In this document: piece by piece, positions 24,797 through 40,472 of the stretch
How positions within the stretch are numbered: position 1 is the stretch's first letter
How the letters are laid out: each line of letters opens with the position of its first letter
Made by a program: the position numbers and the translations under genes
Notes under the pieces: generated by a model
What the model saw: the letters and a program-made list of their open reading frames with translations, nothing else
What the model was told of the DNA's origin: nothing
Database searches by the model: none
Origin: an uncultured Eubacterium sp.
Lineage (GTDB): Bacteria > Bacillota > Clostridia > Lachnospirales > Lachnospiraceae
Reading direction: 5' to 3'
NCBI GenBank assembly: GCA_905236805.1
Contig: CAJOPH010000029.1
Coordinates: 1-57,277 of the forward strand
DNA: 57,277 bases

Positions 24797-26506
24797 TTAC
24801 TTGACAGACAGCCTCCTGTACCTGTTCATGGTGCCCATGAACAGGGCCTTTGGAGCCATCGCAAAGCCCCCGGATACCGTGCCCCCGTCAAACAGCTTCT
24901 CCAACCCTTCCTTTTCCAGGATAGTGTAAAGCTCGTCCGCAATCTCCCTCAGGGTCTTTCTCCCGTTTACCAAATGCAGGTAGGAGTATTTTAACGCCGC
25001 GCACAAAAAAGCCGTCTGCTCCCTGTCTGTTATCTGCTCTAGTCCCCTTAGATCCACGGTTTCCTTGGATATGGAAAAAGAATCAACAGTGATGACCTTT
25101 GACTTTATCCTTTTGTCGGATAAGAGCGCCCTGTCCTGAAGAATCACCCTGTCAAAAGAAGGAAGGTCTATTTCTTCATAACTATCCCTGCTTTCTTCTT
25201 TTATTTCATTTTCGGCCACCTTCCCGGCTTCCCCGGTTACGTCTAAAGGTTCGTACTGCTCCATCTGGATCACCCGGTCAGATACATCAAAAAATGCCCC
25301 CGAGCTTCCGGCCACGAGTATCGTGGAAATACCGAATTTTTCATAGAGCATGCGTACCCTGGATATGAAGGGACGTATGGGCTCTTTCCCCTGGGAAACC
25401 ACCTTTCTCATGATGGCGTCCCTGACCATGAAATTGGTGGCGCAGGTATCTTCATCTATGAGAAGAAGCTTCGTCCCTGCCTCTATGGCCTCTATGGTGT
25501 TGGCCGCCTGGGAGGTGCTGCCCGACGCGTCCTCCGTGTCAAACAGCACCGTATCCTTTCCGTTGGGAAGATCCCTTATGAACATCGAAATATCCGTATG
25601 GCAAATGGCCCTTCCATCCTCAGCCCTCACCTTTACCGCTGTCCGGTCCGATGCCACATACTCCCTGCCATCGCCCAAAATATGGTTGTACACCCCTGAC
25701 TCCAGGGCTTTTAACAATGTGGATTTGCCGTGGTAGCCTCCCCCAATGATGAGGGTTACCCCGTTTTTTATTCCCATTCCCCGGATCTTTCCCTTCCTGG
25801 GCAATTCTATCTCCACGGCCAGCTCATCAGGGGATCTGAAAGGATATGCTTCCTTCATGGGAACGTCCACGGCCCCTGATTTCCTGGGCAATATGGAGCC
25901 ATCCGCGACAAAGGCCGCATAGTCATTTTCCTTCAGGTATTTTCTCAGATAGACCTGGTCATCGGAAAGAAGGAGCTGCGCCTTCATCCTTCTTTTGTCG
26001 TAATTTTCATGGAGGAGGGAATCATTTACTATTTCGGGAAGTATGTCAAAGAGCATCTTTATCAGCCTGTGGGATGTGATCCTCCTTCCGTTTGCGGGAA
26101 ACCCCGCCTCGAAACGGACCGTTACATCCCCCGTGGGCAAGACCCTTACGGCGCTTCTTTCAAGAATCTGCTGTGAGGGCCTTGAGACAAACATCATCCC
26201 GCTCTTCCCGGAGCCTCCCTCGGTGCGCCCTTCCTTTGAGAGCCTTGCCGAAAAATACCTTAACAGCATGTCCTCAAGCGCTATCCTCCTGTGCGCCTGG
26301 TAGTATTCCTTAGGGATCCCCGCTACCTTGGAAGGCACCCTCACGGAAAGTTTTGACGGAGACGCGAAAGGATCGCCCTGCACATGGTCTATCCCCAGCA
26401 CATAGTCACCAAAATCCCACAGCCCCCTTGCATCCTTGTATGCGGGATAGCTCTTTCCATCGATACTTAAAAGCAGTTTTTTTAAATCTTCTTTTGGTTT
26501 TTGCAT
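24797..26506 (-). CDS. ABC_ATPase family protein (predicted ATPase of the ABC class, PF09818-like)
   Basis: 569 aa. The N-terminus IDGKSYPAYKDARGLWDFGDYVLGIDHVQGDPFASPS is characteristic of the family. Walker A GGGYHGKSTLL and Walker B LLLIDEDT are present. Confidence 0.75.
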   Translation of the reverse strand: MQKPKEDLKKLLLSIDGKSYPAYKDARGLWDFGDYVLGIDHVQGDPFASPSKLSVRVPSKVAGIPKEYYQAHRRIALEDMLLRYFSARLSKEGRTEGGSGKSGMMFVSRPSQQILERSAVRVLPTGDVTVRFEAGFPANGRRITSHRLIKMLFDILPEIVNDSLLHENYDKRRMKAQLLLSDDQVYLRKYLKENDYAAFVADGSILPRKSGAVDVPMKEAYPFRSPDELAVEIELPRKGKIRGMGIKNGVTLIIGGGYHGKSTLLKALESGVYNHILGDGREYVASDRTAVKVRAEDGRAICHTDISMFIRDLPNGKDTVLFDTEDASGSTSQAANTIEAIEAGTKLLLIDEDTCATNFMVRDAIMRKVVSQGKEPIRPFISRVRMLYEKFGISTILVAGSSGAFFDVSDRVIQMEQYEPLDVTGEAGKVAENEIKEESRDSYEEIDLPSFDRVILQDRALLSDKRIKSKVITVDSFSISKETVDLRGLEQITDREQTAFLCAALKYSYLHLVNGRKTLREIADELYTILEKEGLEKLFDGGTVSGGFAMAPKALFMGTMNRYRRLSVK

Positions 26507-26523: not shown

Positions 26524-27756
26524 CTATGTTATGTTAAGTCTTCCTATCTCGTATTCACTCATTGCACCCTTGTTGGAAAATCTTACCGGCTTCCCATCCC
26601 ACCTTCTTTTCATGCTTCCCATGATGTGGTAATTTCCCTTGGGAAGATCCGATACATCAAGGTCGTAGACCTTCTCCTTTCCGGGCAGTATCTCACGTGG
26701 GGATATGATGTAATCTTCCTTCGTGCCTGCCCCCTCCTTACCCTTTGCCACTATGGAAAGCTCTATCCCCCTGGAAGCAGTCCCGAATCCGGCGTTCCTT
26801 ATCTGGATCTTTACGTGCTTTGTTTTTTTGTCAAAAAAAACCTGGCGCACCATGAGGGCATATCCCAGCACCATGGTCAGCTCATCGTAGAGTGAATCTC
26901 CTTCCCCTTCCGCCAGCTTCATGTTTGGAGGCATCATCTTCCATTCATTTAATACCTTTTCGTCATAGGTGGAATTAAGGTACGAAACGTGCATGCTTTT
27001 CATGTCCTCTATGACGGCCTTTGGGCTAATGCCTTCCGTCCCAAAGAGGGCCTCCCCGCCATTGAAGGTATCTATGACGGCCCAGGACTGATACTCCATC
27101 TCTACCTTCCTGTGTCCTTCCTCATAGGTCCCAAGGTCAGTCTTTGAGCCAAACATCGCGTCATTAAAAAGGGGGATTTTTTCATCCTCCGGGAAAAGCC
27201 TCTTGAAAGACGGCCTGCGCAGGGCTATGGGGATGTCTTTGGCCAAAATCTCCCTTAGGTAATAATAGAGCTTTTCGATGTAGAGCTCCCCCGAATACCT
27301 GGAACCATGCATCTCTCCCCAGTTTCCGGTAAATATCCCCTGAAATACGAGGATCCGGTCCGAGAATTCATTTATCACCGGAGCGCAGTAATCCATATGA
27401 AAATAAATCTTTTCTATGGTGGGGGGCTCTTTCAAAGGCGCCTTTCCTTCCAGGTCGTAACATACCCTTAAGATGAGGTCCTTTTCATTGTCCGCAAAAT
27501 ACCTAAGGATGGTCCTTATTTCATCCCTTCCCCCCTCGGGCAGATCATGCCTCGCATAGTTTTCGAGGGAGATCTCCACAAGACACAAAGACTCTTCCTT
27601 CGGCATCTGTATGCAATAGCCTTCCTGGTCCTCATTGCCCAGGATGAACCGGTATACCCTGTACCATCCCCGACCGGGATTACCGGTCTTTTGGAGCCTC
27701 TCCGAAATCCTTCCGGGCTTAAATTCGTATTTGTTTCTGTTTCTTGAAAAAAACAT
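26524..27756 (-). CDS. DUF4874/DUF4832-like glycoside-hydrolase-fold protein, no signal peptide seen
   Basis: 410 aa with the NPGRGWY motif near the N-terminus. The layout is TIM-barrel-like followed by a C-terminal beta-sandwich. There is no N-terminal hydrophobic segment. Confidence 0.5.
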   Translation of the reverse strand: MFFSRNRNKYEFKPGRISERLQKTGNPGRGWYRVYRFILGNEDQEGYCIQMPKEESLCLVEISLENYARHDLPEGGRDEIRTILRYFADNEKDLILRVCYDLEGKAPLKEPPTIEKIYFHMDYCAPVINEFSDRILVFQGIFTGNWGEMHGSRYSGELYIEKLYYYLREILAKDIPIALRRPSFKRLFPEDEKIPLFNDAMFGSKTDLGTYEEGHRKVEMEYQSWAVIDTFNGGEALFGTEGISPKAVIEDMKSMHVSYLNSTYDEKVLNEWKMMPPNMKLAEGEGDSLYDELTMVLGYALMVRQVFFDKKTKHVKIQIRNAGFGTASRGIELSIVAKGKEGAGTKEDYIISPREILPGKEKVYDLDVSDLPKGNYHIMGSMKRRWDGKPVRFSNKGAMSEYEIGRLNIT

Positions 27757-27774
27757 ATTATTTAAGTTGATCCC

Positions 27775-28527
27775 TTAACGTTTTTTTAGAATTTTGTAAT
27801 AAAACACCACCGCACAAAGGTCGTATATCAGGTATATCATATACCATACGGGCTTTAGACCGGAATGCATACTCTTTCCCGTCTCCCTTTGGTACATCAC
27901 GGCGGGTATTTCCACCACCTTGTATCCCAAAAGCAGCATCTGGAGTATCATGTTCGCGTCCGGATAGGTCTCGTCAAAGTGGTTGAACTGCGAATAGTAA
28001 TAAAAAGCATCCCCGGAGAGCCCCTGAAGACCCGTGGTGGGATCATGGAGCTTTTTTCCCGTAAGGAGCCTTATTATGCCCCTGAAGAGCTTTACCGCAA
28101 ACATCTTTACCCCAGATACCGGAAAAGGGGATGACCCCTCCATATACCTGGACCCTAAGACTATGTCGGGATATTTCCCGTCCGCATCTTTCTCCCTTAG
28201 CTTTTGGTAGATTTTTAACACATTTGACGCATCGTGCTGTCCATCCGCATCCATCTGGATTACATAGCTGTAGTTTTTCCGCACCGCGTATTTGTAGCCT
28301 ATCTGGAGGGCGGAACCATACCCCATGTTGAAAATATGGTTCACCAGGCCTTTTGAGGATTCCCTCACGATATCCCCGGTCGAATCCCCTGATGCGTCAT
28401 TTATGACCAAAACATCCGAAAATCCTGAAATATCAGGCTCTGAAAGCCTCTCCAATACCTGCCTTATCGATCCTTCTTCATTGTATGCGGGAAGTATGAT
28501 CAGCACATCCTTGTCGCTCCTTATCAT
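27775..28527 (-). CDS. family 2 glycosyltransferase (polyprenol-phosphate glycosyltransferase-like)
   Basis: 250 aa with ILPAYNEEGSI, INDASGDST and QMDADGQHD (DxD), plus a C-terminal TM. The start overlaps the upstream GT4 stop (ATGA). Confidence 0.85.
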   Translation of the reverse strand: MIRSDKDVLIILPAYNEEGSIRQVLERLSEPDISGFSDVLVINDASGDSTGDIVRESSKGLVNHIFNMGYGSALQIGYKYAVRKNYSYVIQMDADGQHDASNVLKIYQKLREKDADGKYPDIVLGSRYMEGSSPFPVSGVKMFAVKLFRGIIRLLTGKKLHDPTTGLQGLSGDAFYYYSQFNHFDETYPDANMILQMLLLGYKVVEIPAVMYQRETGKSMHSGLKPVWYMIYLIYDLCAVVFYYKILKKR

Positions 28528-29765
28528 GCCATCAGTTCCCCAAGGTCATCTAACATTTCATCATCGTCATATACTATTTTTCCGGCATTTTCCGAAAGAA
28601 GGCTCCTTAATACCTCATCCTTTAGGAGCATCGCCACCTTATCAGCTATGTCCTTTGAATTTACCTTTGCGTAAAGGCCGCTCTTACCATCCTGAAGCTG
28701 CTCTTTGTTGCCGGGCGCAAGCGTAAGCACGATGGGAAGAGCAAGGGTTGCCGCTTCCTGGATGGCTATGCTCTTTCCCTCATAGCGCGAGGGCTGGACG
28801 TAGATATCTGCCTCCTTCATGTAAGGGTAGGGATTGTCCTTTCGTCCCATCAGGATGAAATCATCCTCCAGATTTCTTTCGGATATGAGGCGCTTTGTCC
28901 TTTCTTTCTCTTCACCGTCTCCTATCAGGTACCACCTTACGTTTGTGATGCCTGACTTCTTTAGGTTCCACATGGCGTCCACGGCAAGGTCTGCCCCTTT
29001 TTGGAAATGAAGCCTTGCCACGGTGACTATCCTCTTTCCCCCAAATCCGTCCCCAAACCCCGATCCCTCATCTGCCCTCTTCCTTATGAGATCTTGGTTT
29101 ATGAGGTTTGGAAAAATAAAAGTCTTCCCCATGCAGGATGGGTAAAACATGCAAAATGACGCCCTTACCTCATCGGATACGCAGTATATCCTGTCAAAGG
29201 CATCATAACACTCCCCGTCCATATCCTTCGTATATCCCGACCGGGCGTAATCTATGTGGACAAAGGCGGCCTTTTTTTCCGCATCCACATGATCTGCCAC
29301 ATAATAGCTCGACGCGCCTTCCACAAAGGCAATGGCCAGATCGTAATGTTTTTTCGGTCTCGGAAGCGAATCAGATATCGCCCTCCACAAAAGCTTGTCG
29401 GGCATGATATTTTTTTCACGAAGCATCTTTGAGCCGATCTTTGCCAGGTATAGACCATCCTTAAATATGGTCCCGTTCCTAAAGAGCAGGTGGGATACAT
29501 GCCGGGAAAGCTCTCTTCTCCCCCCTTCTTCAAGGACGGATTCGCTGCTGTAAAAAGGGGAAGGACCCATCTTGTTAAGAAGCCTTACCCCTTTTGGAAC
29601 TTCACCTAACATTTCACCCATGCCGGTCATAATGAGAAGGTCTATATCGTACCTTCGGATGAGCCTTTTTGTCAGCTCCAATGCGGCCATCTCCGCCCCC
29701 GCCTTTGAGAGCGTGTTCACCGCAAAAAAAATCTTCTTCCTGGTCATGTCTTCATCCCCTTTCAT
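28524..29765 (-). CDS. family 4 glycosyltransferase (GT-B, GT1 superfamily)
   Basis: 413 aa. The C-terminal half carries the EGKSIAIQEAATLALPIV (E-x7-E like) motif. Confidence 0.8.
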   Translation of the reverse strand: MKGDEDMTRKKIFFAVNTLSKAGAEMAALELTKRLIRRYDIDLLIMTGMGEMLGEVPKGVRLLNKMGPSPFYSSESVLEEGGRRELSRHVSHLLFRNGTIFKDGLYLAKIGSKMLREKNIMPDKLLWRAISDSLPRPKKHYDLAIAFVEGASSYYVADHVDAEKKAAFVHIDYARSGYTKDMDGECYDAFDRIYCVSDEVRASFCMFYPSCMGKTFIFPNLINQDLIRKRADEGSGFGDGFGGKRIVTVARLHFQKGADLAVDAMWNLKKSGITNVRWYLIGDGEEKERTKRLISERNLEDDFILMGRKDNPYPYMKEADIYVQPSRYEGKSIAIQEAATLALPIVLTLAPGNKEQLQDGKSGLYAKVNSKDIADKVAMLLKDEVLRSLLSENAGKIVYDDDEMLDDLGELMA

Positions 29766-30166
29766 GACCTTTCTACGTCGAGGACTATTCTTAGTTTAGC
29801 TTCCTCTTCTCCCACAAGGTATTCCAATATCTCTTCGTTTTCCTGATTGAGCAACGCTATGTGCATGGCCATCTCCCGGGTCTGGATGATGTTCCGGGAA
29901 ATCCTGGAACTAAGGTAAAAAAGTCCCAGTATCATCAGGTACCCTATAAAGACAAACACGGCATAGCTGGATAATGGTATGGCGCTCATCCAGTCCTTCC
30001 AGATGGGAAGAAGACCCAATACGATGAGCACCACCCCGAACAGGTTCCAGTACATGGCAATCTTTAGGATCAGCCTGTGCAGGGTATAGATCAAAAAAGC
30101 CGACACAATAATGAAAAGCCCCGTTAATACAAATACCGTCCTTATGCCTATGGCCAATGTAAACAT
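29762..30166 (-). CDS. DUF2304-like small membrane protein
   Basis: 134 aa with four hydrophobic helices and a C-terminal amphipathic tail. It lies next to GT genes, which is the usual DUF2304 context. Confidence 0.5.
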   Translation of the reverse strand: MFTLAIGIRTVFVLTGLFIIVSAFLIYTLHRLILKIAMYWNLFGVVLIVLGLLPIWKDWMSAIPLSSYAVFVFIGYLMILGLFYLSSRISRNIIQTREMAMHIALLNQENEEILEYLVGEEEAKLRIVLDVERS

Positions 30167-30201
30167 ATCTGTCCACCCCTAAACGGCTGCCCCACTTTCT
30201 T

Positions 30202-31692
30202 TTATCCGTAGGCTGCCTCTCCTTCCACGTCATCTTTTTCTTCTTTTTTCTTTTTGTCCCTGTTGTATACCTCATCGGGAGGCCTTTGCCCCTTTCCTTT
30301 ATGGAGCAAAAGCCCCCTGCAGAAGATATGTGTCTCCATGTGTCTCTCGGCCCACCTCAGCCTGAAGTAGGCGATAAACCATCCCGCCAAAGACCCTGCG
30401 AAGACCCCCGCGCCATACCAGATATAGTCATACCGTATGGCCACCAGCGTGCCTATGATGGTAATACCCATGAACGTGCCCGATGTCAGTATCGCCCCAA
30501 ACGTATCGTTGAAATAATACAGGAATATTATTGCGGAATACATGATGAACAATATGAAATACGCGGACGCAAGAAGCGGGTATATCTGCATCACCAGACC
30601 CGATATCCCCAACAGCGGCAAGGTCACCATGAAGATAAGGAAGGATACGACGGACACTATGAACTGTATCCTGGCCAAAGACAAAAGCTCCGACGCCAAA
30701 GACAAAAACATATGGTCCTGCGCGGTCTTTACATCCAGATACCTTCCCCCTATAACGGCCTCGGAATATCCCTTGTAGCGGGAATGAAAATTCATCTCCA
30801 CCCTGGAGATAAAGATCACGGTGGCCGAGATGTTGGTGATAAGCGCTATAAATGAAGCCATGTCATATGGTTCGGCCGATACGAACACACCTGCCGTCAC
30901 CACCCTGAGGTCCGTGGTCCATACGATCATGTTGTGTATGTAAAGTCCCACGATATAGCATGTGTTTGACACTATGAGTCCCGCATAGGACTTGAAATAA
31001 GGAAGCACCCGGCGGTAATTGTGGCTGCTTTCCGTGAAATACTTCGTAAGCTGGGCATACATCAGCGACCCTATGAACAAAAGACCTATGTCCAGCCCCA
31101 TGAGCATGCCATATGTGATCTCCATGTCGAAGATCTTTACAAACAGCCAGGCCGCACCAAAGGCAAGACCCATTCCCAAGAGGTAGAACAAAGCCACCTT
31201 CCCGTAATCCTTTACGATGGAAAGGTATATCATGGTATAAAGCATCCATACGAGCGCGAAATATCCGACATATCCCATCAGCGAAAAGAAAGGATCCACC
31301 CCTCCCTTTACCACCTCCATAATACAGAAAGGTATGGCGGGGATGGCGCTTACTATGACATTTATGGATAAACCCGTATAATAAGCAGGCATGACATCCT
31401 GGTAGAGCTCATCATAGAGGAGGTCTGACATGTATCTGGAAAGTACCGCATTTAAGGGAGACGTGGTACAAAGCGCAAAAATAAACATGTACAGCACCGT
31501 CCCCGAAAACAGTTCCCTGACACTGTATGAGACGGTATCAAATCCCAAAAAATATTCCATGAGCACTATGTCCAGCATGATGATCACCATGGGTGCTATG
31601 GAAACCACCGAAGAGTATGCCACTCCCCCTACGTGGAAAAGAAGTGAGCGCTTTTCGTATATCCGGTTTAACCGTACTCCTATACCTGCCAT
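30202..31692 (-). CDS. pelG: exopolysaccharide Pel transporter PelG
   Basis: 496 aa, polytopic with about 12 TM. The N-terminus MAGIGVRLNRI is characteristic of PelG. It lies immediately downstream of pelF. Confidence 0.8.
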   Translation of the reverse strand: MAGIGVRLNRIYEKRSLLFHVGGVAYSSVVSIAPMVIIMLDIVLMEYFLGFDTVSYSVRELFSGTVLYMFIFALCTTSPLNAVLSRYMSDLLYDELYQDVMPAYYTGLSINVIVSAIPAIPFCIMEVVKGGVDPFFSLMGYVGYFALVWMLYTMIYLSIVKDYGKVALFYLLGMGLAFGAAWLFVKIFDMEITYGMLMGLDIGLLFIGSLMYAQLTKYFTESSHNYRRVLPYFKSYAGLIVSNTCYIVGLYIHNMIVWTTDLRVVTAGVFVSAEPYDMASFIALITNISATVIFISRVEMNFHSRYKGYSEAVIGGRYLDVKTAQDHMFLSLASELLSLARIQFIVSVVSFLIFMVTLPLLGISGLVMQIYPLLASAYFILFIMYSAIIFLYYFNDTFGAILTSGTFMGITIIGTLVAIRYDYIWYGAGVFAGSLAGWFIAYFRLRWAERHMETHIFCRGLLLHKGKGQRPPDEVYNRDKKKKEEKDDVEGEAAYG

Positions 31693-31700
31693 AACCTATC

Positions 31701-33137
31701 CTACCTAAACCCCTCGTAAATATTCCTGTAAGTATCTATCATATGCTCTATGGTATACTTTGACATGACCCGGCTGTATCCGGCTTCGCCCATCCTCTCC
31801 CTGGCCACCTCGTTCTGGGCAAAGAGGATCATCGCCTCGGATATCTCCTCGATGTTCATGATGTGGCAAAGAACCCCGGCGTCCCCGTATTCATCACCCT
31901 CCTCGCCATAGATAAGGCCCTTGCAGTTGCCCACATCCGTGGCTATGCAGGGCTTGTGGGCGGCGTACCCCTCCAGGATGGTAAGGGGCTGTCCCTCCGA
32001 GATGGATGTAAGTATCGTGCAGTCCATCCGGCCTAGGTACTCCTTTACGTCAATCCTTCCGGTAAACACCACATCCTCTACCTCAAGGGCATCGACCATG
32101 TCAAAGCATTCCTTTGCGTATTCCTCGTCCTCATCATACGATCCCATGATCCAAAGCTTCAGGGAGGGCTCCCTTTTTTTCGCGTAGTAAAAGGCCCTTA
32201 TCATGGTCTTTACGTCCTTGATGGGAGCTACCCTTAGGACCGCCCCTATATTGCAAAATCCCTCATCCTCGGGAAGCTTTCCCGGTATGTTTGAAAAATT
32301 CCGGGTGCGGATCCCGTTGGGCGTAACCTGTATCTTTGATACGGGAGCCCCCAGCTCTATCTGAAGCTCCTTTGCGTAGCCATACAGGCAGGTGATAAGG
32401 TCTGCCCGTTCATAGGCAAGGACCGACATTTTCTTGAACTGCTCTATCCATATGCTCTTGTAGATGCCCTGCACCCATTTGGCGGAGACCAGCTCTTCCT
32501 CCCTCTCCCTGGTGTAGATTCCGTGTTCCGACACCAAAAGCCCCGCATTGTGGCGGTACTTTCCCATGGCACCTATGACCCCGGCGTATCCCGTGGCCAC
32601 GCAGTGGTAGATGTCAGCCTTTGGCACATCAAACTTCATGATCAAAAAGAGCGGCAGGTAGATGGATCTCATGGTCCACAGGTAATCGGAAAAAACCGCC
32701 TCCGAATGAAACCTCCTGTAGCTCTCCTTTACTGCATTCATAAAATCCACGCCCATGAGGAGGCCGTTCACCGAAACCCATGGCTTCTTGATGAAATCAA
32801 ACAGTGTATCCCAGTCAGGGTTCTCATTTACTATGAGGGATACCAGGGCCTTATATTCGTCTTTCTTCATGCGCTTTTTGTGCCAGGAATTGGAACGTTT
32901 TATTCCCCACTTGGAGTCTTCCTGTGACCAGTCAAAGTCGGAAAGGTACAGCTCGTATACCGAACTTACGTTTTCAGGCAGTTCGTAGACAAACTTCCCC
33001 CGCATCTTCCTGTCTGCCGCTATGGCGCAGATGATGAACTCATGCTCCGGGAAGGAATTTATCATATTGTGAATCCAGCTGGAGACGCCGCCTACCACAT
33101 ACGGATAGCACCCCTCCGCAATCATGCAGATCTTCAT
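31701..33137 (-). CDS. pelF: Pel glycosyltransferase PelF (DUF3492 N-terminal region plus GT4)
   Basis: MKICMIAEGCYPYVVGGVSSWIHNMI is the typical PelF N-terminus, with a GT4 C-terminal half (EGQPLTILEGYAAHKPCIATDVG). The track start at 33167 is a GTG that overlaps the upstream gene. ATG at 33137 is preferred. Confidence 0.85.
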   Translation of the reverse strand: MKICMIAEGCYPYVVGGVSSWIHNMINSFPEHEFIICAIAADRKMRGKFVYELPENVSSVYELYLSDFDWSQEDSKWGIKRSNSWHKKRMKKDEYKALVSLIVNENPDWDTLFDFIKKPWVSVNGLLMGVDFMNAVKESYRRFHSEAVFSDYLWTMRSIYLPLFLIMKFDVPKADIYHCVATGYAGVIGAMGKYRHNAGLLVSEHGIYTREREEELVSAKWVQGIYKSIWIEQFKKMSVLAYERADLITCLYGYAKELQIELGAPVSKIQVTPNGIRTRNFSNIPGKLPEDEGFCNIGAVLRVAPIKDVKTMIRAFYYAKKREPSLKLWIMGSYDEDEEYAKECFDMVDALEVEDVVFTGRIDVKEYLGRMDCTILTSISEGQPLTILEGYAAHKPCIATDVGNCKGLIYGEEGDEYGDAGVLCHIMNIEEISEAMILFAQNEVARERMGEAGYSRVMSKYTIEHMIDTYRNIYEGFR

Positions 33138-33138
33138 A

Positions 33139-35007
33139 TCATTTAAAGAGGAACGTATTTTCCTCACCCTTCATGGAAATCGTAAGTTTACTGCCATCTG
33201 TTTTTATCAGGTACGCCCCTTCGTCTATCTTGCGGAAGGTCGCGCCCTTTACTTTTTCTATCTCTCCTTCATGGGTTCTGAAGATGAAATAATTGTGGTC
33301 GGCAACGGTATCAAGCTTTACGACTATCGTGCCATCATCCTTGACCTTTTCGGTATAGGACATCGTGAGGAAGGCCCTTGCCCTGTATCCCAGCTCGGAA
33401 AGGGACACTTCCGTAAAGCATTCATAGGGTTTCCAGTAATCCACCGTGTAACCGGAAAATTTCTTGAAATAATTCTGCCACTCATCCTCATCGGAATTGG
33501 GGTCGGGATAGATTATCGAAGAAAGATCACCCTCTATGCACGAATACCCCAAGGCGCTCTCCAATGACCTTTCCAGAAGGTCATCTTTGTATGTGTGTCT
33601 TCTCGCGTCAGCCGTGGCCGAAATATCTATCACATCGTCATCGGCATAGAAGAGATATCCGTTTTCCTCATCATATTCGGAAAGAAGGGTGCAAACATCC
33701 TTGAAACCTGCCTCCTTAAGGAGCTCTATAGCCTCCTCCTTGTCCTTCTTTCCCACGTAGGCGGTATTTATCACATAGTCGGGAAAATACTCATTGAAAA
33801 AATCGCAATCTTCCTCAAGGGCAGATCCTATGTCAGATACATCATCCCTTTCAAGGCATACGCCGGCCTCCCCGTCAACCTCCCTTATCAGCCTTAAAAA
33901 ATAGTCCAGGTATTCTTCGTTTAAGGGATTGTTTGACGATGACCTTATCCTCCCCGAAAACATGCACGCCACCCTGGCGTCCGTGGTGGTGGCAACAGAC
34001 GCTATCCCCGGCCACACGAGGTCTCTTTGTACCACGTGGGAATTCCTGGAGTATATGCCCTTTAGCACATCGTCATTTTCCAGGGAAAGGGTGGGATAGT
34101 TCGTCATGACCAGTCCCTGGGCGTTTACTATGGGGTAGATCACATAGTCATCGCTTTCGTATTCAAATCCATAAAGCAGGCCCAATCCTATCCTGCTCTC
34201 CAGAAAATCTGCGTAAACCACATAGACAAAGGCGTCATTGTAGGTATTTCTCCATATCATGGGAGGAGGGACCTCACCGTCATCCACCTTGTAGGAGGAT
34301 TCATCCACATGGGCGCACATGAACGTCTTAGTACCTGATGTCAAGGTGTACCAGTTCATGTAACTAAGGTCAAGGTCATCCCTTTTCTCCTCCTCCTCAT
34401 TATAAGGATCGTAGATGACCCCTCCTCCCAGAAGCAGTCCCTCGTAGACTTCGGCTCCTTTCATCTTGATGCTTGCGGACCTTTTGGCATATATACCCAG
34501 TATCTCCGTCAGGTCTTTTGAAGAATCCAGTATGGATTCATCGGGCAGCCCCGAAAAAATAAGATTCACCTTCCTCTTGGTTATGTGCTTCAGCGAAGCT
34601 ATGTCGGAATCGGATGTAACTGTCGATGAATCCACCAGACAAAATTCCGGGATATTTTTCTTTCCTATGCCCTTGATGTAGGAGTCGGCAGCAGACAGCG
34701 ACGTGAACGAACGTATGTTCTTTCTTTGGTACCTGCACCATTCATTAAGCAGGGAAGCCGTGTCAGTATTTTTTCCCACGTAGATGCAGTACTCTGTACC
34801 GCCTGCCGCATCCCCCGATTCGGAAAGGTCTGTCACCTCAAACACCCTGTCTTTGGTCATCCCCACTCCCGCGCCGTCGTACCCATCGAACTCATTTTCG
34901 TAGTAATCCGAAAGCACGGCCTTTGCGGTGGATGAAAACATCATCAGGAAAAAGACCACCATCATGACTATGGTAATAGTAAAAAAATTCCTTCTGGATA
35001 TCTGCAT
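33139..35007 (-). CDS. DUF2194-like extracytoplasmic protein in the PelA(deacetylase) position
   Basis: 622 aa with an N-terminal signal anchor (FFTITIVMMVVFFLMMFSS). It sits between the pelE-like gene and pelF, as pelA_DA does in Gram-positive pel operons. Confidence 0.55.
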   Translation of the reverse strand: MQISRRNFFTITIVMMVVFFLMMFSSTAKAVLSDYYENEFDGYDGAGVGMTKDRVFEVTDLSESGDAAGGTEYCIYVGKNTDTASLLNEWCRYQRKNIRSFTSLSAADSYIKGIGKKNIPEFCLVDSSTVTSDSDIASLKHITKRKVNLIFSGLPDESILDSSKDLTEILGIYAKRSASIKMKGAEVYEGLLLGGGVIYDPYNEEEEKRDDLDLSYMNWYTLTSGTKTFMCAHVDESSYKVDDGEVPPPMIWRNTYNDAFVYVVYADFLESRIGLGLLYGFEYESDDYVIYPIVNAQGLVMTNYPTLSLENDDVLKGIYSRNSHVVQRDLVWPGIASVATTTDARVACMFSGRIRSSSNNPLNEEYLDYFLRLIREVDGEAGVCLERDDVSDIGSALEEDCDFFNEYFPDYVINTAYVGKKDKEEAIELLKEAGFKDVCTLLSEYDEENGYLFYADDDVIDISATADARRHTYKDDLLERSLESALGYSCIEGDLSSIIYPDPNSDEDEWQNYFKKFSGYTVDYWKPYECFTEVSLSELGYRARAFLTMSYTEKVKDDGTIVVKLDTVADHNYFIFRTHEGEIEKVKGATFRKIDEGAYLIKTDGSKLTISMKGEENTFLFK

Positions 35008-35022
35008 ATCTTAAACCCTTTT

Positions 35023-36150
35023 TTAGGCAAACGCCCTTATTATCTCCAAGGTAGCCTTGTCTATGACGATGTTCGTCTGCCTTAGATCGCTCATGACTTC
35101 CATGAACCTTTCCTTGTCGCTCTTTTTGAAGTAAAATTTCAGCCTGCAGGTGTAAGAGATAAGGTCATCAGGATGCGTAACGGCGCATCTCATGCACCAC
35201 TTTTCGCAAAGATCCATTTCCCCGCAGTTCATAAGGTGGTTCGTGATCCACTCATAATGCCTTGCAAAAAGGATCTCGGGGGAGACGTTAAACAAAAGCT
35301 CCGCTACCTCCGAGAGCATGACGGAATAAGAAGCCTGCTCCATCGGGGTGAAAACCCCCTGTCGGAGAAACGCGTCCATGTACTTGATAAGGGCCGAGCC
35401 ATACTGCATCCAGTCCTCCCTGGGTCTTTCCTCATCCGCTATCGCCTCTCCGTTCACCTCCTTCTCCGCGACTATCTCCATGAGTGCCCTTTGCTCCTTA
35501 AGGAAGCTGTATACCTCTTCCACATTGGCCCTAAAGACATTCAGCTCTGCTGAAAGCACGGAGGCAGCGTAGTGGGCGGTCTCGGTGTCCTTGGAATTAA
35601 GGGCTTCCATGATGACCCTTAGGGACTTGTCCACATCGTCCCCCCTCAGGATGTTTAGCATCAGGGCACGCAGGTTACTCGAGTCAGTGACAGCCAGAGC
35701 CTCCTCCAGAGGTACCAGGTTTCTCTCCCTCTCATCATCTCCACGCTGCTTTACCGTCTCTTTCTCCTTTTCGAACAGCACATCGTAAAGGTCTACCTCT
35801 TTCCTGAAGAATATCTTTCTCAGGATGGTGCCAAAACCCACGACCACCACGACCACCACGGGAACGACCAGCATCATCACACAGGTCATAATGCAGCGTT
35901 TCCTGTCGAATACTTTATCTATCCTTTCTTCCTTGATATCGGAAGGGAGCATGAGGTCGGGAATCTCGTCCCTTTCATCCGGCATCCTAAAGTCAATCTT
36001 TTCTTCATTGGATCCTGCAACGGTGGCTTTTTCGGCCTCCTTTGCCCTTACCTTGAACCTGGGGCGGATAGCCACACCGTAGATGAGATATGCCAGGGCA
36101 CAAAGATCATTTACGACTAAAACAATGATGCAGATAACGGTCCCGCTCAT
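35023..36150 (-). CDS. pelE: PelE-like membrane protein (two TM plus helical repeat region)
   Basis: 375 aa with TM1 at about aa 5-27 and TM2 at about aa 86-110 (VMMLVVPVVVVVVVGFG), followed by an all-helical C-terminal half. The call rests on position after pelD and on architecture, not on a motif. Confidence 0.5.
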   Translation of the reverse strand: MSGTVICIIVLVVNDLCALAYLIYGVAIRPRFKVRAKEAEKATVAGSNEEKIDFRMPDERDEIPDLMLPSDIKEERIDKVFDRKRCIMTCVMMLVVPVVVVVVVGFGTILRKIFFRKEVDLYDVLFEKEKETVKQRGDDERERNLVPLEEALAVTDSSNLRALMLNILRGDDVDKSLRVIMEALNSKDTETAHYAASVLSAELNVFRANVEEVYSFLKEQRALMEIVAEKEVNGEAIADEERPREDWMQYGSALIKYMDAFLRQGVFTPMEQASYSVMLSEVAELLFNVSPEILFARHYEWITNHLMNCGEMDLCEKWCMRCAVTHPDDLISYTCRLKFYFKKSDKERFMEVMSDLRQTNIVIDKATLEIIRAFA

Positions 36151-39100
36151 GCCGATACCCCCCGGTTCATGGAGATGATCGCTATCTCCGAAACCTTGTC
36201 ATCACGGACGGACCTTATGGCATACCGACCCCGGGTCCTGCCCTTTTTCCTGGCGTCCGAATCCGTCCATTTGTTGACGCCTGCCGGAAGCTCCGCGGTC
36301 CTTTTCCACTTGCCGGAGTGTGGATTGTACCTGAATATCTGATAGCCATCGCATCCCGGTGTCTCCTCCCAGGCTATCGTGGGTGCGCCTAATGACCTGC
36401 TGATCACGGCCTTTGGCGGAAGCAGGCCTATCTTGAATGGCAGGGATTTTTTACCGGTATATTTTCCCTGACCATGGATGACGACTATCCCGGTACCTAT
36501 CGAACGATTGTTCTCGTATGAAAGGACATAATCCTCCCCATGCTCCAAAATCCGAAGTCCGTAGCGGACCGTGATCTTCGGAGCCACGGGATCTCCCGTG
36601 AAAGGATAGATATCGTCCAAGTCAAATACCACAACATCCTCCACCGAATAGCAGATCTTAAAGTCTTTTTTGATCTCCCCGACAAACCTCCCCATACCTT
36701 CTATGGTGAGTGTACCGGTGCCCGGCCTGGTATTGTTTACGTAGGCGATCTCGTAATCATGCCCCCTGCGGAGCAGGTAATCGCCTATAGCCATGGTAGG
36801 CTTGGGCTGTATGGGACGCCCCGTAAATCCATAAACATCCTGAAAATCCAGCACCCTGACCATGGAGAGGTCTATGGGATCATCCCCCTCGGGGATATCC
36901 CCACCGTGAAGGGCCGCAAGGGACATCTTTGACAGATCTCCCGCCAAAGCCTGCGCAATGTTGCTCTCCTCCACTATCTCATCCACGGAAGCCTCCCCCC
37001 TCATGCCAAGGATCTTGGTCCTGTCTTCCTTGGGGATTTCCATGGCACCCCATGTACCCGCTTCCTGAGAGGAATCTGCCTCCCCGCCATCCGGGACGAT
37101 CTGCGGCTCTATCTGTTCTATCTCCTGCTCCAGGAGATAGAACACATCCTGTGTCTCCATGACCGTCGTGCCTATTCCCTTTTTGTCAAACCTGTCTATT
37201 ACGAACTTGGCGGCCTCCCTGTCGGTATTCGAAAGGAGAAGGTAATAATTTTTGTCTGACAAAGATCCCATGTAATCGGATGACCTTATCATATGGGATG
37301 CCGTCTCCAGCTCCCGTGTGTCCCCGACATTTTTGAAATTCAAACGCAGTACAGTGGCTATGGTCAGCTCCCTTCGCTGGGCATTCAAAAACGCCCGCAC
37401 CAGGGAGGTGAAAGCCCCGGTCTCCAGGATCCTTGTTCCCTCCAGATACCTTTGCTGCTCCAATGCGTCCATGAAATTGTTCGCGCGAACCACCGCGTTT
37501 TGGATCAAAAGACCTATGACCTTCAGCATGTTCGCCTGCCCCAGGTTCATATGATCCCAAGGAATCCCCCAGACCATGACTATCATACGCATCTTTTCCT
37601 CGGAGAAAATGGCATTTGCCATGAGGGGATAACGCTCGTCCATGGTCTTGTTCACATAGACCCTGTCATTGATAAAGTCCTCATAAAGATCTGTGTATTC
37701 AGGATATTTTATTGAATTTCCCAAAGACCTTGCTATGGGACTGGTCGCGGCAAAGAGCCTTGCGTAATCCGAATTTTCCACGGTATATATGGCAACGTCC
37801 TGGGTTCCCACCAGCATCTCCACTATCTCGGCCGCAAAAAACAAAACGTCCTCAGGCTCGTAATGATCCAGTGAAGATGTGATCGAATATACCTTTCCGA
37901 AAGAATCTTCCTGATTTACTATCTGATTCTCCAAGACATTCTTTATCTGGACATTGGTCGTATTTATCTCCGATATATCCTCCCTCTGCCTGGTCAGGTA
38001 GTCTATCTCCACCTCGTCCTCATCACGGATGACCTTCAGGCGGTCTTTGATATATCCCACTACCAGTCCCACTATGAACAGCTGCGCTATCCACACGTAG
38101 GTATTGTAATCCAGGACCACATCGAACTGTGACCTGTCATACTGCTGCCTGTACAGGTAGCCCGCGGTAGCCAAAACGCCCGAAAACGCTGCCTGCTGCT
38201 GCCCGAATACCACGGCGAACAAAAGCACATACAAAAGCAAAAAGTCCAGATTAGCGAAATACTGCGAATCCGTCGCCCTGTTATTGAGCATGAAAAACGG
38301 GATGAACATGACCGCGTTTTCTATGAACGGGATGAGCTTGAAGATGATGTCTGCCACCTGGGCCTTTATCCCCTGCGCCCTGTCTTCTTTATTTTTCTTT
38401 TTTGTACCGAAATATTTCGTGTAATGGTGCTTCACGGCAGACGCTAACTGCGGCAGAGTCTTTTGGGGATCGTCGAACACCCTGGTACCAAACTCCGTAT
38501 GGAAACAACTCCCATCCAAAACCAGGCGGAAGGGTGCGCCGACATTGCGCTCTTCCACCTTTACCTCCCTGCCAAGGCCTTCCGCCAGAAGGTTTGCCAC
38601 GGCCGTCTCGTTTACCACCTTCCCTGAGGAAAGGTGGTAGAGATCCTTTTCGAAGCTCTCGGCCGTCATCACCCTGTATATGTAATCCACCGCATCAGAT
38701 GAGTGAAGCATGGAAAATTCGTGCCGGGAATTCGAATGGATCATCCCGTCGTCCAAGGCCTCCTTTAACATCTCCCTGAACATGGGGGGCATGTCGTAGG
38801 ATGATGCGGGGGTGCCGTAAAGGTGGTCAAGGCGGAGCGATATGGTCTCCATATTCCCGAAGGACCCAAAGTTCTTTACGGTCATCTCCCCCTGGCGGAT
38901 CAGGTTGTTCTTGGGGTTGGAGATGGTGGGTACCTCCGATTCTTCGGTATAGTTCTCTGTTGAGGGATTTTCGAACACCTGTTCGGATGAGAGGTACAAG
39001 AACCTCACCTTTTTGTTCATGGAGCTTAACGAAGTCAGTATGTTTACGAGTCCCGTAGAGTACTCCAATATATGCCTTTGCTCTACCTGATCCGGGAAAT

Positions 39101-39329
39101 TTGAATCATACGCGCCCATGAAAATGACGGCATCCGGACGGATGCTCTCAAATATCTGAGGTATCGATTCATTTACGTATGAGAAATTGTATTGCTCGAA
39201 AACCTTCGGTATACGCTTTTTTACATGATCCGTACCCGTAAGGACATAGATTCTGTCGCCTTCCTTGGAAAGCTTGTCTATCAGGGCATCACTCAGATAG
39301 CTCCTTGCTCCTACTAAAGCTACATCCAT
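36147..39329 (-). CDS. pelD: PelD-like c-di-GMP receptor fused to an N-terminal SDR/epimerase-like domain and C-terminal Ig-like repeats
   Basis: 1060 aa. Aa 1-310 have an extended-SDR fold (DAVIFMGAY, LYLSSEQV, RLDHLYG) with no YxxxK anywhere, and VGARSYLS replaces GxxGxxG. Four TM follow at about aa 325-440, then a GAF-like region and a degenerate GGDEF-like region with RSSD (37275-37286). Two 71-aa Ig-like repeats lie at 36648-36860 and 36423-36635, followed by a beta-rich tail. Confidence 0.75.
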   Translation of the reverse strand: MDVALVGARSYLSDALIDKLSKEGDRIYVLTGTDHVKKRIPKVFEQYNFSYVNESIPQIFESIRPDAVIFMGAYDSNFPDQVEQRHILEYSTGLVNILTSLSSMNKKVRFLYLSSEQVFENPSTENYTEESEVPTISNPKNNLIRQGEMTVKNFGSFGNMETISLRLDHLYGTPASSYDMPPMFREMLKEALDDGMIHSNSRHEFSMLHSSDAVDYIYRVMTAESFEKDLYHLSSGKVVNETAVANLLAEGLGREVKVEERNVGAPFRLVLDGSCFHTEFGTRVFDDPQKTLPQLASAVKHHYTKYFGTKKKNKEDRAQGIKAQVADIIFKLIPFIENAVMFIPFFMLNNRATDSQYFANLDFLLLYVLLFAVVFGQQQAAFSGVLATAGYLYRQQYDRSQFDVVLDYNTYVWIAQLFIVGLVVGYIKDRLKVIRDEDEVEIDYLTRQREDISEINTTNVQIKNVLENQIVNQEDSFGKVYSITSSLDHYEPEDVLFFAAEIVEMLVGTQDVAIYTVENSDYARLFAATSPIARSLGNSIKYPEYTDLYEDFINDRVYVNKTMDERYPLMANAIFSEEKMRMIVMVWGIPWDHMNLGQANMLKVIGLLIQNAVVRANNFMDALEQQRYLEGTRILETGAFTSLVRAFLNAQRRELTIATVLRLNFKNVGDTRELETASHMIRSSDYMGSLSDKNYYLLLSNTDREAAKFVIDRFDKKGIGTTVMETQDVFYLLEQEIEQIEPQIVPDGGEADSSQEAGTWGAMEIPKEDRTKILGMRGEASVDEIVEESNIAQALAGDLSKMSLAALHGGDIPEGDDPIDLSMVRVLDFQDVYGFTGRPIQPKPTMAIGDYLLRRGHDYEIAYVNNTRPGTGTLTIEGMGRFVGEIKKDFKICYSVEDVVVFDLDDIYPFTGDPVAPKITVRYGLRILEHGEDYVLSYENNRSIGTGIVVIHGQGKYTGKKSLPFKIGLLPPKAVISRSLGAPTIAWEETPGCDGYQIFRYNPHSGKWKRTAELPAGVNKWTDSDARKKGRTRGRYAIRSVRDDKVSEIAIISMNRGVSA

Positions 39330-39342
39330 AGTATTTTACCTG

Positions 39343-40437
39343 CTATATTACTTTTAAAAGATTCTCCCACTCGGAGACGATCTTTTCAATGCCAAAATCT
39401 TCGACCCTTACCAGCGCATTCCCGGCGAGATGATCCCTCACATCAGCATGATCCATAAGATATCTCATCTTCTCAGGAAACTCCTCATCACCACGCACGA
39501 GGTATCCGTTTTTCGCATCATCTACTATCTCACGCGGACCCGTACGCACATCCCTTGCTATCACGGGCACCCCGTGGGAAAAAGCTTCCAAAATCACCAT
39601 TGGAAAACCCTCTGTCCTGGAAGGAAGGACAAAGCAGTAAGCATCCCGGTAGAGCCTGTCCATGTCAGCTACACGTCCAATGAGAAATGCGTTCTTTAGG
39701 CCATTGTTCTTTATGTATTTGGACAACCTCCCGTATTCAGGACCATCGCCCGCGATAATGAGCCTAAAGCCCCTGCTTTTTGCCTCATCCTGAATCCGAT
39801 CCCAGGCCCAAAGCAATGCGTCAAAGCCCTTTCTCTTTATGAGGTGACCTGCCGAGAGGAAATAGGGATGAGGGTTTTGGGAAAAGGAGGCTTTGGAGAC
39901 GCCCTTACCCTCTTTGGAAGGAGGAAGGGATGGATTATATATCTGAGCCAGCCTTCCATCCTTAAATCCCATCCTGCTGATATGAGCCCTTCTGTCTTCC
40001 TCCGTGAGGACTATAGTCCTTACCGCATGCTTTTTTGCAAAAGCCTTCGCCAGAATCCTGTGCGGATAGTCCCTGAGGAAGTAATAATTAAAATGCTCCC
40101 ATGAGAGTATCTTCACGGGGAGGTCTCCCGCCGCTAGGGAGCTGTATATCGTAAGCACGCTGTCAATATCCACTATCACGTCCACACAGCTGCCTTTAAG
40201 GTATTTGCGAAGGCGGGCTACGACCACAGGTCCGTCCATGACGAAAGAACCCCTGCCCCTCCGGATAACGTGGGATAATGTTATATTTTTATTTAACACA
40301 AAGCGGGGACGGGCTTTGTAGACGCTCAATGCACATACCTCATACCCCTTTTCCGACAGGGCGTTGGCTATAAGCGTCCCTACCCTCTCCGTACCTCCGC
40401 CATTTCCAATGTTCCCGAAAAAAAAGCATATTTTCAT
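39343..40437 (-). CDS. family 4 glycosyltransferase, first gene of the pel-type locus
   Basis: 364 aa with MKICFFFGNIGNGGGTERV and EGFPMVILEAFSHGVPVIA (E-x7-E). There is no Shine-Dalgarno sequence in the 15 nt before the ATG. Confidence 0.8.
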   Translation of the reverse strand: MKICFFFGNIGNGGGTERVGTLIANALSEKGYEVCALSVYKARPRFVLNKNITLSHVIRRGRGSFVMDGPVVVARLRKYLKGSCVDVIVDIDSVLTIYSSLAAGDLPVKILSWEHFNYYFLRDYPHRILAKAFAKKHAVRTIVLTEEDRRAHISRMGFKDGRLAQIYNPSLPPSKEGKGVSKASFSQNPHPYFLSAGHLIKRKGFDALLWAWDRIQDEAKSRGFRLIIAGDGPEYGRLSKYIKNNGLKNAFLIGRVADMDRLYRDAYCFVLPSRTEGFPMVILEAFSHGVPVIARDVRTGPREIVDDAKNGYLVRGDEEFPEKMRYLMDHADVRDHLAGNALVRVEDFGIEKIVSEWENLLKVI

Positions 40438-40443
40438 AGCTAT

Positions 40444-40472
40444 ATTTTATACCATACATGAAAATAAGTCAA
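40444..40472 (-). promoter_or_regulatory. promoter candidate placing the transcription start at or next to the GT4 ATG (possible leaderless mRNA)
   Basis: The minus strand reads TTGACT (40467-40472), a 17-nt spacer, TAAAAT (40444-40449), then 6 nt and the ATG at 40437. Confidence 0.4.

Follow-up and report, generated by a model that had tools for sequence, protein, structure and literature searches.

Pel is a major polymer of the biofilm matrix. It consists of partially de-N-acetylated alpha-1,4-linked N-acetylgalactosamine (GalNAc). To our knowledge, Gram-positive Pel has been studied only in Bacillus and Streptococcus. The Lachnospiraceae are abundant commensals of the gut and rumen, and their surface glycans shape aggregation and the interactions with host and phage. 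Here we analyze a Pel-type locus of this family, at positions 26524-40437 of contig CAJOPH010000029.1 from an uncultured Eubacterium sp. The whole stretch of DNA, 57,277 nucleotides (57 kb), is called the window, and coordinates without another label refer to it.

Previous work described the PelD of clostridia, which is fused to a domain of the short-chain dehydrogenase/reductase (SDR) type, and DUF4832 as a pel accessory gene (Whitfield et al. 2020, PMC7112168). The S7 Fig of that study places Roseburia pel loci within larger clusters, with genes for glycosyltransferases of families 1 and 2 (GT1, GT2), phosphotransferases and nucleotidyltransferases. Whether these clusters make Pel was not settled there (PMC7112168). 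Our literature search found no paper after Whitfield et al. 2020 characterising a Lachnospiraceae pel locus. Other described systems decorate glycans by means of polyprenyl-phosphate. These three-component glycosylation systems include GacI/J/K/L, GtrB/A/V and CsbB/GtcA/YfhO. GacJ, a DUF2304 protein, complexes with and stimulates GacI, and its homolog Rv3632 stimulates PpgS (Rush et al., bioRxiv 10.1101/180810). The lipid-linked N-acetylhexosamine (HexNAc) products of the GacI/GacJ and PpgS type are donors for GT-C transferases of the outer face (bioRxiv 10.1101/180810).

Taken jointly, our results leave the chances evenly balanced for the following reading. The window would hold a Lachnospiraceae-type Pel locus, in a reduced form, where a PelDEFG synthase is accompanied by a donor branch (GT2 and DUF2304) and by a glycosyltransferase of family 4 (GT4b). 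Ten open reading frames (ORFs) lie in the same direction on the minus strand within 26524-40437, and an ABC_ATPase gene comes next, beyond this range. This confirms the eleven co-directional, tightly spaced genes reported in a preliminary description of the window. In order of transcription, they are the following.

39343-40437, minus strand: GT4a, family 4 glycosyltransferase (Pfam)
36147-39329, minus strand: SDR-PelD, 1060 amino acids (Pfam Epimerase at the N-terminus)
35023-36150, minus strand: PelE-like protein (synteny, two N-terminal transmembrane helices, TPR-like helical domain)
33139-35007, minus strand: DUF2194/PelA_DA-like protein (Pfam)
31701-33167, minus strand: PelF (NCBIfam and Pfam)
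30202-31692, minus strand: PelG (Pfam)
29762-30166, minus strand: DUF2304-like protein (Pfam below threshold, positional orthologs above the cut-off)
28524-29765, minus strand: GT4b, family 4 glycosyltransferase (Pfam)
27775-28527, minus strand: GT2, 250 amino acids (Pfam)
26524-27756, minus strand: DUF4874+DUF4832 protein (Pfam)
24797-26506, minus strand: ABC_ATPase, the eleventh gene

The junctions are short along the whole run. GT4a and PelD are separated by 13 nt, PelD and PelE-like overlap by 4 nt, a 15-nt gap precedes PelA_DA-like, and PelA_DA-like and PelF overlap by 29 nt. Then follow gaps of 8 nt (PelF to PelG) and 35 nt (PelG to DUF2304) and an overlap of 4 nt (DUF2304 to GT4b). GT4b and GT2 also overlap by 4 nt, with gaps of 18 nt before DUF4874+DUF4832 and 17 nt before ABC_ATPase. 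The scan of the window revealed no strong terminator-like site or gap within the run.

We compared this locus with 80 genome loci recovered by a PelG search, nearly all labelled as Lachnospiraceae or related Clostridia. Their PelG is 46-60% identical to that of the window, and no protein on file is identical to the latter. A further sample comprised 27 metagenome loci, the best of them at 53%. In 68 of the genome loci the sequence continues for 5 kb or more downstream of pelG, and these make up the informative subset for that region. The order pelD-E-A_DA-F-G is general among the relatives. In the informative loci, GT4b is present in 65/68 and GT2 in 62/68. The order GT4b-GT2-DUF4874 occurs in 60/68 of these species-level genome loci, and it recurs in the metagenome loci. 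Likewise, a small ORF of 121-175 amino acids lies between pelG and GT4b in 60 loci, and jackhmmer connects about 58 of these 60 with the DUF2304-like protein of the window. The arrangement DUF2304-GT4-GT2-DUF4874/4832 downstream of pelG is the normal layout in Lachnospiraceae.

Because 60 of the 68 related loci share the block, the expansion is not a peculiarity of the window. The window is a reduced and modified variant of a known architecture, itself uncharacterised, and the claim of a special expansion fails. Two of the three glycosyltransferases counted as extra in the preliminary description, GT4b and GT2, belong to the conserved block. The third, the upstream GT4a, is not conserved. The ABC_ATPase was also listed among the eleven genes, and it is absent from the conserved locus of the relatives.

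The Pel core itself is well supported by profiles and gene order, which agree with the Gram-positive Pel-type locus, SDR-fused PelD and embedded glycosyltransferase genes first reported. The genes follow the D-E-A_DA-F-G order in a single direction of transcription, as in Gram-positive Pel loci. PelF reaches 373.8 bits with NF038011 (cut-off 100) and 269.5 bits with DUF3492 (cut-off 23.3). It is predicted to be a GT4 polymerase with an N-terminal DUF3492 domain, as expected of Gram-positive Pel. The called ORF opens at a GTG at 33167. Ortholog and hidden Markov model (HMM) alignments start at residues 11-13, so translation more likely begins at the ATG at 33137. With this start, the 29-nt overlap with PelA_DA-like turns into a 1-nt gap. 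PelG gives 421.8 bits with PF16933 (cut-off 29), covers model positions 1-452 of 452, and shows about 11 hydrophobic segments. It has the features of the polytopic membrane export component of Pel systems.

PelD begins with an Epimerase (SDR) domain of 44.5 bits (cut-off 20.9). The YxxxK motif is absent and the GxxGxxG motif is degraded, which fits the degenerate class described for clostridia. Three transmembrane-like segments lie at residues 325-427. For the GAF and GGDEF regions there was no Pfam match, and the search of the Protein Data Bank (PDB) with the single sequence gave nothing useful. The profile of orthologs matched only GGDEF domains in the PDB, aligned across the RxxD I-site and the GGDEF position. 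R682 and D685 of the RxxD motif are invariant in 71/71 orthologs. Thus PelD seems to be of the clostridial Pel type, with an SDR domain, a transmembrane region and a degenerate GGDEF with RxxD; its GAF region can be called GAF-like only. The PelE-like protein has no HMM match in Pfam or NCBIfam. Its syntenic orthologs are 30-45% identical, and its position between pelD and pelA_DA and its two transmembrane helices are as expected of PelE. A single-sequence AlphaFold2 (AF2) model is all-alpha, with a predicted local distance difference test (pLDDT) of 62.6 overall and 70-90 over residues 170-375. The best Foldseek matches of this low-confidence model are TPR/PPR repeats, and they are weak (E 1e-2 or worse). 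In sum, profile searches bear out the assignments of PelF, PelG and DUF2194. The DUF2304 protein of the window stays under its cut-off, and the PelE-like protein finds no profile.

The second part of the locus is the pair formed by GT2 and the DUF2304-like protein. GT2 gives 57.9 bits with Glycos_transf_2 (cut-off 23.3), carries DAD and PAYNE motifs, and is 53-61% identical to its relatives. Its PDB matches are limited to polyprenyl-phosphate glycosyltransferases (DPMS 5mlz, ArnC, GtrB). The best NCBIfam model is PpgS, a polyprenyl-phospho-GalNAc synthase, at 75.9 bits (cut-off 370). The others are AglJ, dolichyl-phosphate hexose transferase and ArnC, and every equivalog cut-off is missed. GT2 is thus a putative polyprenyl-phosphate glycosyltransferase. 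The DUF2304-like protein scores 21.5 bits, under the cut-off of 25.5; the two positional orthologs tested score 36.4 and 28.5 bits. It presents the features of a GacJ/Rv3632-type partner, with GT4b intervening between it and GT2. In four relatives (L015, L041, L070, L075), GT2 and DUF2304 are absent together, pelDEFG and GT4b are kept, and GT4b stands directly after pelG. This co-loss supports a functional pair. Together with the PDB matches and the positional orthologs, it upholds the polyprenol-phosphate-type GT2 with a DUF2304 membrane partner that was first proposed. It also indicates that GT4b works independently of the pair. GT4b gives 104.6 bits with Glycos_transf_1 (cut-off 26.4) and has an EX7E motif. 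In the PDB it is closest to the GT4 domain of Cps3D (8qoy, E 2.9e-20) and to TarM. No membrane-spanning or export segment is predicted, so GT4b presumably acts in the cytoplasm.

The preliminary description left two roles for these genes, a side-chain decoration or a lipid-linked primer. In the second case, the sugar made by GT2 and DUF2304 would be extended by GT4b, GT4a or both into a membrane-anchored primer, which PelF elongates. We consider this very unlikely. The loss of the pair from loci that keep pelDEFG argues against an obligatory primer-maker for PelF, and two further relatives (L034 and L064) lack GT4b as well. The characterised GT2/DUF2304 pairs make donors, not primers (bioRxiv 10.1101/180810), and canonical Pel systems do not need a lipid primer (PMC7112168). 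GT4a, moreover, is not conserved. On the other hand, GT4a is akin to PglH and to capsule GT4 enzymes acting on undecaprenyl-linked acceptors, and one match of GT2, AglJ, starts dolichyl-monophosphate-linked glycans. A primer would also agree with the informative genome loci, where the pair never occurs without GT4b (L100 and L101, two metagenome loci, may be exceptions), and with a window that has no GT-C enzyme to consume the donor. Compared with this alternative, the likeness of GT2 and DUF2304 to the donor synthases GacI/GacJ and PpgS/Rv3632 favours a donor for decoration. Of the two roles, side-chain decoration is the one favoured by the co-loss and by the GT-C-like protein of the relatives, and the lipid-linked primer is disfavoured.

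This GT-C-like protein is a polytopic membrane protein of about 800 amino acids (780-980), encoded in 73/80 genome loci and in 20/20 metagenome loci long enough to hold it. Only two of the untruncated genome loci are without this gene. It is placed between pelE and pelA_DA in some relatives and after DUF4874 in others. The family, with over 2000 sequence clusters, goes under the label hypothetical or under the wrong name 'amino acid ABC transporter permease'. The AF2 model of one member has a pLDDT of 81 and a predicted template modelling score of 0.82. With Foldseek, the top seven PDB matches are all GT-C enzymes (STT3, DPY19, AglB and AftA among them), with E values of 1.6e-4 to 4.9e-3 and probability 1.00; the next match has E >1. 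STT3, DPY19, AglB and AftA use polyprenyl-linked donors. D174 and H178 (Asp-x3-His) are invariant just past a transmembrane helix, a location expected for the first outer loop of GT-C enzymes. The assignment is a lead at the level of the fold and not a proof. Examples of the gene are L011:4039-6423, L001:3677-6622, L003:15213-17657, L028:4295-6625 and L034:2685-5114.

The last gene of the block encodes a protein with DUF4874 (133.2 bits, cut-off 30.1) and DUF4832 (111.0 bits, cut-off 29.2). It is not an extra of unknown nature, as its family includes SIR_1591 of S. intermedius, an experimentally active Pel glycoside hydrolase (PMC12345266). The relatives present two copies, for example L003:13894-15210 and L003:17670-19175. 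The one directly after GT2 is signal-less, with no N-terminal hydrophobic segment, and the other is anchored in the membrane. Only the signal-less paralog is found in the window. Both groups share all the invariant polar residues, including D101, E148, D199 and E235. The window protein has both the TIM-barrel domain and the DUF4832 domain of SIR_1591, but the N-terminal anchor or export signal is absent. It is predicted to be glycoside-hydrolase-like, with a presumed role on the cytoplasmic side. In two relatives, DUF4874/DUF4832 is fused to the GT-C-like protein, at the N-terminus in L016:13837-17538 and at the C-terminus in L065:11977-15492. These fusions tie the GT-C-like protein to the pel locus.

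The fusions also bear on another explanation, in which the extra genes decorate a wall polysaccharide, a teichoic acid or a capsule and the pel genes are merely neighbours. Known systems with GT2/DUF2304 and GT-C proteins do decorate wall polysaccharides, and some relatives' loci also contain Stealth phosphotransferase, GT2+NTP_transf_5 and Wzx-like genes. Even so, we regard such a separate pathway as unlikely. The block stands between pelG and a gene of the Pel hydrolase family in those 60 genomes, with 4-nt overlaps, and the gene run of the window has no strong terminator-like site or gap.

The PelA_DA-like protein raises a different question, the chemistry of the polymer. It belongs to the DUF2194 fold family (47.1 bits, cut-off 30.4) and has a sole N-terminal membrane anchor, with transmembrane residues 8-26. 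Its identity among the relatives is 25-37%, compared with about 60% for PelF. The PelA_DA of B. cereus depends on two paired Asp residues, on HxxxH and on a catalytic His (PMC13254593). These CE26/CE4 de-N-acetylase motifs are not conserved in the PelA_DA-like family, and no histidine is conserved at residues 250-470, the presumed esterase region, among 58 orthologs. The invariant N295/A296 and E376-x3-E380 are located roughly at the Asp-Asp and HxxxH positions, as mapped by offset and not by alignment. The single sequence gave nothing useful against the PDB. The ortholog profile had a weak collinear match, outside the esterase/catalytic core, to 9zau_A (E 0.0028), which we take to be the structure of B. 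cereus PelA_DA. The gene is missing in six relatives' loci (L008, L010, L014, L018, L021, L064). Hence, the PelA_DA-like protein is probably not a metal-dependent deacetylase of the CE4/CE26 type. Because the family has no conserved histidine, deacetylation should not be assumed.

These observations might suggest that the product of the PelF/PelG-type machine in this clade is a polysaccharide of different chemistry, not deacetylated and unrelated to Pel. For Roseburia, this possibility was considered by Whitfield et al. (PMC7112168), and the degenerate SDR domain is compatible with it. Nevertheless, PelF is far above its equivalog cut-off, the locus keeps a gene of the Pel hydrolase family, and the residues were mapped to the solved enzyme by offset. 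We judge this explanation rather unlikely.

Several points weigh against the reading of a Pel synthase with a decorating branch. The sequence of GT2 does not give its sugar specificity, with a PpgS score far under the cut-off. The GT-C-like family has no sequence match to Pfam, with each member scanned, or to the PDB, with the ortholog profile; the template modelling scores (TM-scores) of the Foldseek matches are modest (0.33-0.45). The gene is kept in loci without the GT2 pair, and L008 has the pair without the gene. The 57-kb window contains neither the GT-C-like gene nor a flippase of the GtrA or Wzx type, nor remnants of them. Two components of a three-component system, the outer-face GT-C transferase and the flippase, are thus absent there. 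The lipid-linked sugar would have no identified consumer in the window, and since the GT-C-like gene is lacking, the proposed decoration pathway is incomplete in it. In addition, the product may not be canonical Pel, given the PelA_DA-like protein without conserved histidines. Finally, our literature search found no chemical or expression data on any Lachnospiraceae pel locus.

The missing genes could mean that the locus is decaying. The decoration branch would then be vestigial, once the GT-C-like gene and the secreted hydrolase had been lost, and the extra genes would be dispensable or disappearing. The window is without a gene kept in nearly every untruncated locus of the relatives and also without the anchored DUF4874 paralog. 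The non-conserved ABC_ATPase comes right after DUF4874, at the place taken in relatives by the GT-C-like gene and the second paralog. But all ten ORFs are intact. The DAD motif of GT2, EX7E in both GT4 enzymes and the invariant acidic residues of DUF4874 are kept, and the translational coupling is retained. The missing genes could also sit elsewhere in the genome, outside the window. For these reasons, decay seems quite improbable to us. We also looked for the GT-C-like gene or the second DUF4874 copy as pseudogenes in the window and rejected this idea, with no trace at E<=1. The closest relative, L001, carries the GT-C-like gene.

The reading that we prefer, a Pel synthase with a donor branch, can be put as a sequence of steps. 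PelD, PelE, PelF and PelG would form a synthase-dependent membrane machine for the polymerisation and export of a Pel-like polymer that is probably GalNAc-rich. Cyclic di-GMP (c-di-GMP) probably gates this machine at the RxxD of the degenerate GGDEF of PelD. On the cytoplasmic face, GT2 and DUF2304 would make a polyprenyl-phosphate-linked sugar, like GacI/GacJ and PpgS/Rv3632. In related genomes, the GT-C-like transferase of the locus may take this lipid-linked sugar and decorate the polymer outside the cell. GT4b would attach one more sugar in the cytoplasm, without depending on the GT2 pair, and the signal-less DUF4874/DUF4832 enzyme would complete the conserved block. The window lacks the GT-C-like gene and the anchored hydrolase paralog, and has gained a capsule-type GT4 and the immunoglobulin-like (Ig-like) repeats of PelD. 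In this reading, gene identities, synteny, conservation, co-loss and fold matches are results, and the identity of the sugar, the acceptor, the decoration and the control by c-di-GMP are inferred from them.

A more specific proposal is doubtful. A synthase-dependent Pel machine and a donor system of the GacI/GacJ/GT-C type, usually two separate machineries, might have merged in Lachnospiraceae, with a branched, non-deacetylated Pel-like polymer as the product. In this proposal, the PelA_DA homolog is a non-catalytic scaffold, the GT-C-like family is the decorating transferase, and the signal-less glycoside-hydrolase-like enzyme acts on the cytoplasmic side. If so, the window would be a natural knock-out of the outer-face steps. 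If the block decorates, modification through a GT-C enzyme and a polyprenyl-phosphate donor would be shown for the first time in a synthase-dependent exopolysaccharide. A large orphan family of membrane proteins would also gain a function. The apparent loss of the deacetylase motifs is a warning not to take each pelF/pelG locus found in surveys as a maker of cationic Pel. For the window alone, the practical outcome is a corrected annotation.

The modifications of the window concern GT4a and the C-terminus of PelD. GT4a gives 113.5 bits with Glycos_transf_1 (cut-off 26.4) and 34.8 bits with Glyco_transf_4, and has an EX7E motif. In the PDB it matches PglH/WlaC over the full length (6eji, E 5.6e-20) and SdgB in the C-terminal part. 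Its nearest homologs, at most 40% identical, are in Wzx/Wzy capsule loci of diverse Firmicutes. It seems to be a glycosyltransferase with a GT-B fold and a retaining mechanism, of the capsule/PglH-like type. Because no relative (0/80) has it upstream of pelD, it would be a lineage-specific addition, seen only in the window. The PelD of the relatives mostly has 717-757 amino acids, and that of the window carries 330 more residues (731-1060).

36150-37139, minus strand: C-terminal extension of PelD (acidic linker, two Ig-like repeats, FN3-like tail)

None of the 80 relatives' loci has a counterpart of the extension, and Pfam gives no match to it. A word-indexed protein search returned no matches, a limit of its prefilter, since the full HMMER search found about 20000. 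More precisely, the latter gave 19890 representative proteins with the repeat at E<=0.001. The best homologs are proteins of 1300-7600 amino acids, where the repeat stands in tandem in as many as 44 copies, together with choline-binding, ChW or CBM_X2 signatures. These giant proteins with cell-wall-binding modules are presumably surface proteins. It is odd to find surface-type Ig-like repeats attached to a cytoplasmic GGDEF.

Regarding expression and control, two features near the locus were considered.

40444-40472, minus strand: promoter-like site, TTGACT-17-TAAAAT with an upstream TG (extended -10); a match to the consensus only, at 10/12 positions
23638-24678, minus strand: HD_5 (HD-GYP-like) protein (HD_5, 108.3 bits)

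The promoter-like site ends 6 nt before the ATG of GT4a, and there is no Shine-Dalgarno motif there. This suggests that GT4a is a leaderless first gene. The counts of promoter and terminator predictions were not above the shuffled expectation, and only the site before GT4a is noteworthy. No Rfam match to a riboswitch or other RNA was found in the window or the 5' intergenic region. In one sublineage, L019 and L029, as well as some ten metagenome loci, carry a homolog of the HD_5 protein (about 31% identity) directly upstream of pelD. The HD_5 protein at 23638-24678 is possibly a c-di-GMP phosphodiesterase, loosely linked to the locus. The recurrence of HD_5 beside pelD is compatible with control by c-di-GMP. 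A second HD_5 protein is encoded at 50672-52060 (minus strand), and one of the two carries two receiver domains.

A divergently transcribed ABC transporter flanks the locus upstream. The downstream flank has the ABC_ATPase, the HD_5 protein, a UDPGP-family enzyme and a chemoreceptor, and the remainder of the window holds housekeeping and signalling genes. The ABC_ATPase (24797-26506) is a P-loop protein of the ABC_ATPase/MRB1590 type. The UDPGP-family enzyme is a nucleotide-sugar pyrophosphorylase (22366-23589, minus strand), co-directional with the locus. We rejected both as members, neither being present in any relative's locus. Among the signalling genes, 43807-48543 (minus strand) encodes a protein of 1578 amino acids with an unusual combination of domains: an N-terminal DegV of the fatty-acid-binding family, dCache sensor domains, a hybrid histidine kinase, and receiver and Hpt domains. 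Other hybrid kinases are at 48536-50593 and 52122-55208.

Some relatives add genes to the cluster, none of which is in the window. They encode a Stealth phosphotransferase, a fusion of GT2 with an NTP_transf_5 nucleotidyltransferase, and a Wzx-like membrane protein, the last in some loci. Such cluster-extending genes are located at L003:19145-20191, L028:17813-20134, L011:18569-20977 and L028:16258-17778. In L008, we considered a membrane protein of 970 amino acids as a divergent GT-C-like homolog and rejected it, as it is akin to the Wzx-like gene. The types of added genes fit the S7 legend for Roseburia.

Among known systems, the locus resembles the Roseburia clusters (PMC7112168). They also belong to Lachnospiraceae, with an SDR-fused PelD and pelDEA_DAFG in a larger cluster with GT1/GT4, GT2 and DUF genes. 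The window differs by lacking the phosphotransferase, the nucleotidyltransferase, the GT-C-like protein and the anchored DUF4874 paralog, and by having the upstream GT4 and the PelD extension. B. cereus ATCC 10987 shares the D-E-A_DA-F-G order, the degenerate GGDEF with RxxD, and a membrane-anchored PelA_DA next to PelG. However, an SDR domain is absent from its PelD. Its PelA_DA, which has Asp/His motifs, is active as a CE26 deacetylase (PMC13254593), and these motifs are not conserved in the family of the window protein. As accessory genes it has a divergent pelA_H and galE, instead of GT2, DUF2304 and GT4.

The S. intermedius cluster also shows a degenerate SDR on PelD and a DUF4832-containing glycoside hydrolase contiguous with the pel genes. 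In contrast, its PelD has no GGDEF, and SIR_1591 has an N-terminal membrane helix that the window homolog does not have (PMC12345266). Its accessory genes encode a CotH-like protein, SIR_1592 (four transmembrane segments and an ACT domain) and SIR_1593, which the authors link to phosphate metabolism (PMC12345266).

Finally, GacI/GacJ/GacK/GacL of S. pyogenes and PpgS/Rv3632 of M. tuberculosis share with the window a short, soluble-type GT2 and a small membrane DUF2304 protein. Unlike them, the window has a GT2 under the equivalog cut-offs and no flippase or GT-C gene. In the relatives, the likeness to the Gac type extends to a polytopic GT-C-like protein in the same locus. The presumed acceptor also differs, as it would be a synthase-dependent exopolysaccharide and not a wall rhamnan or arabinogalactan.

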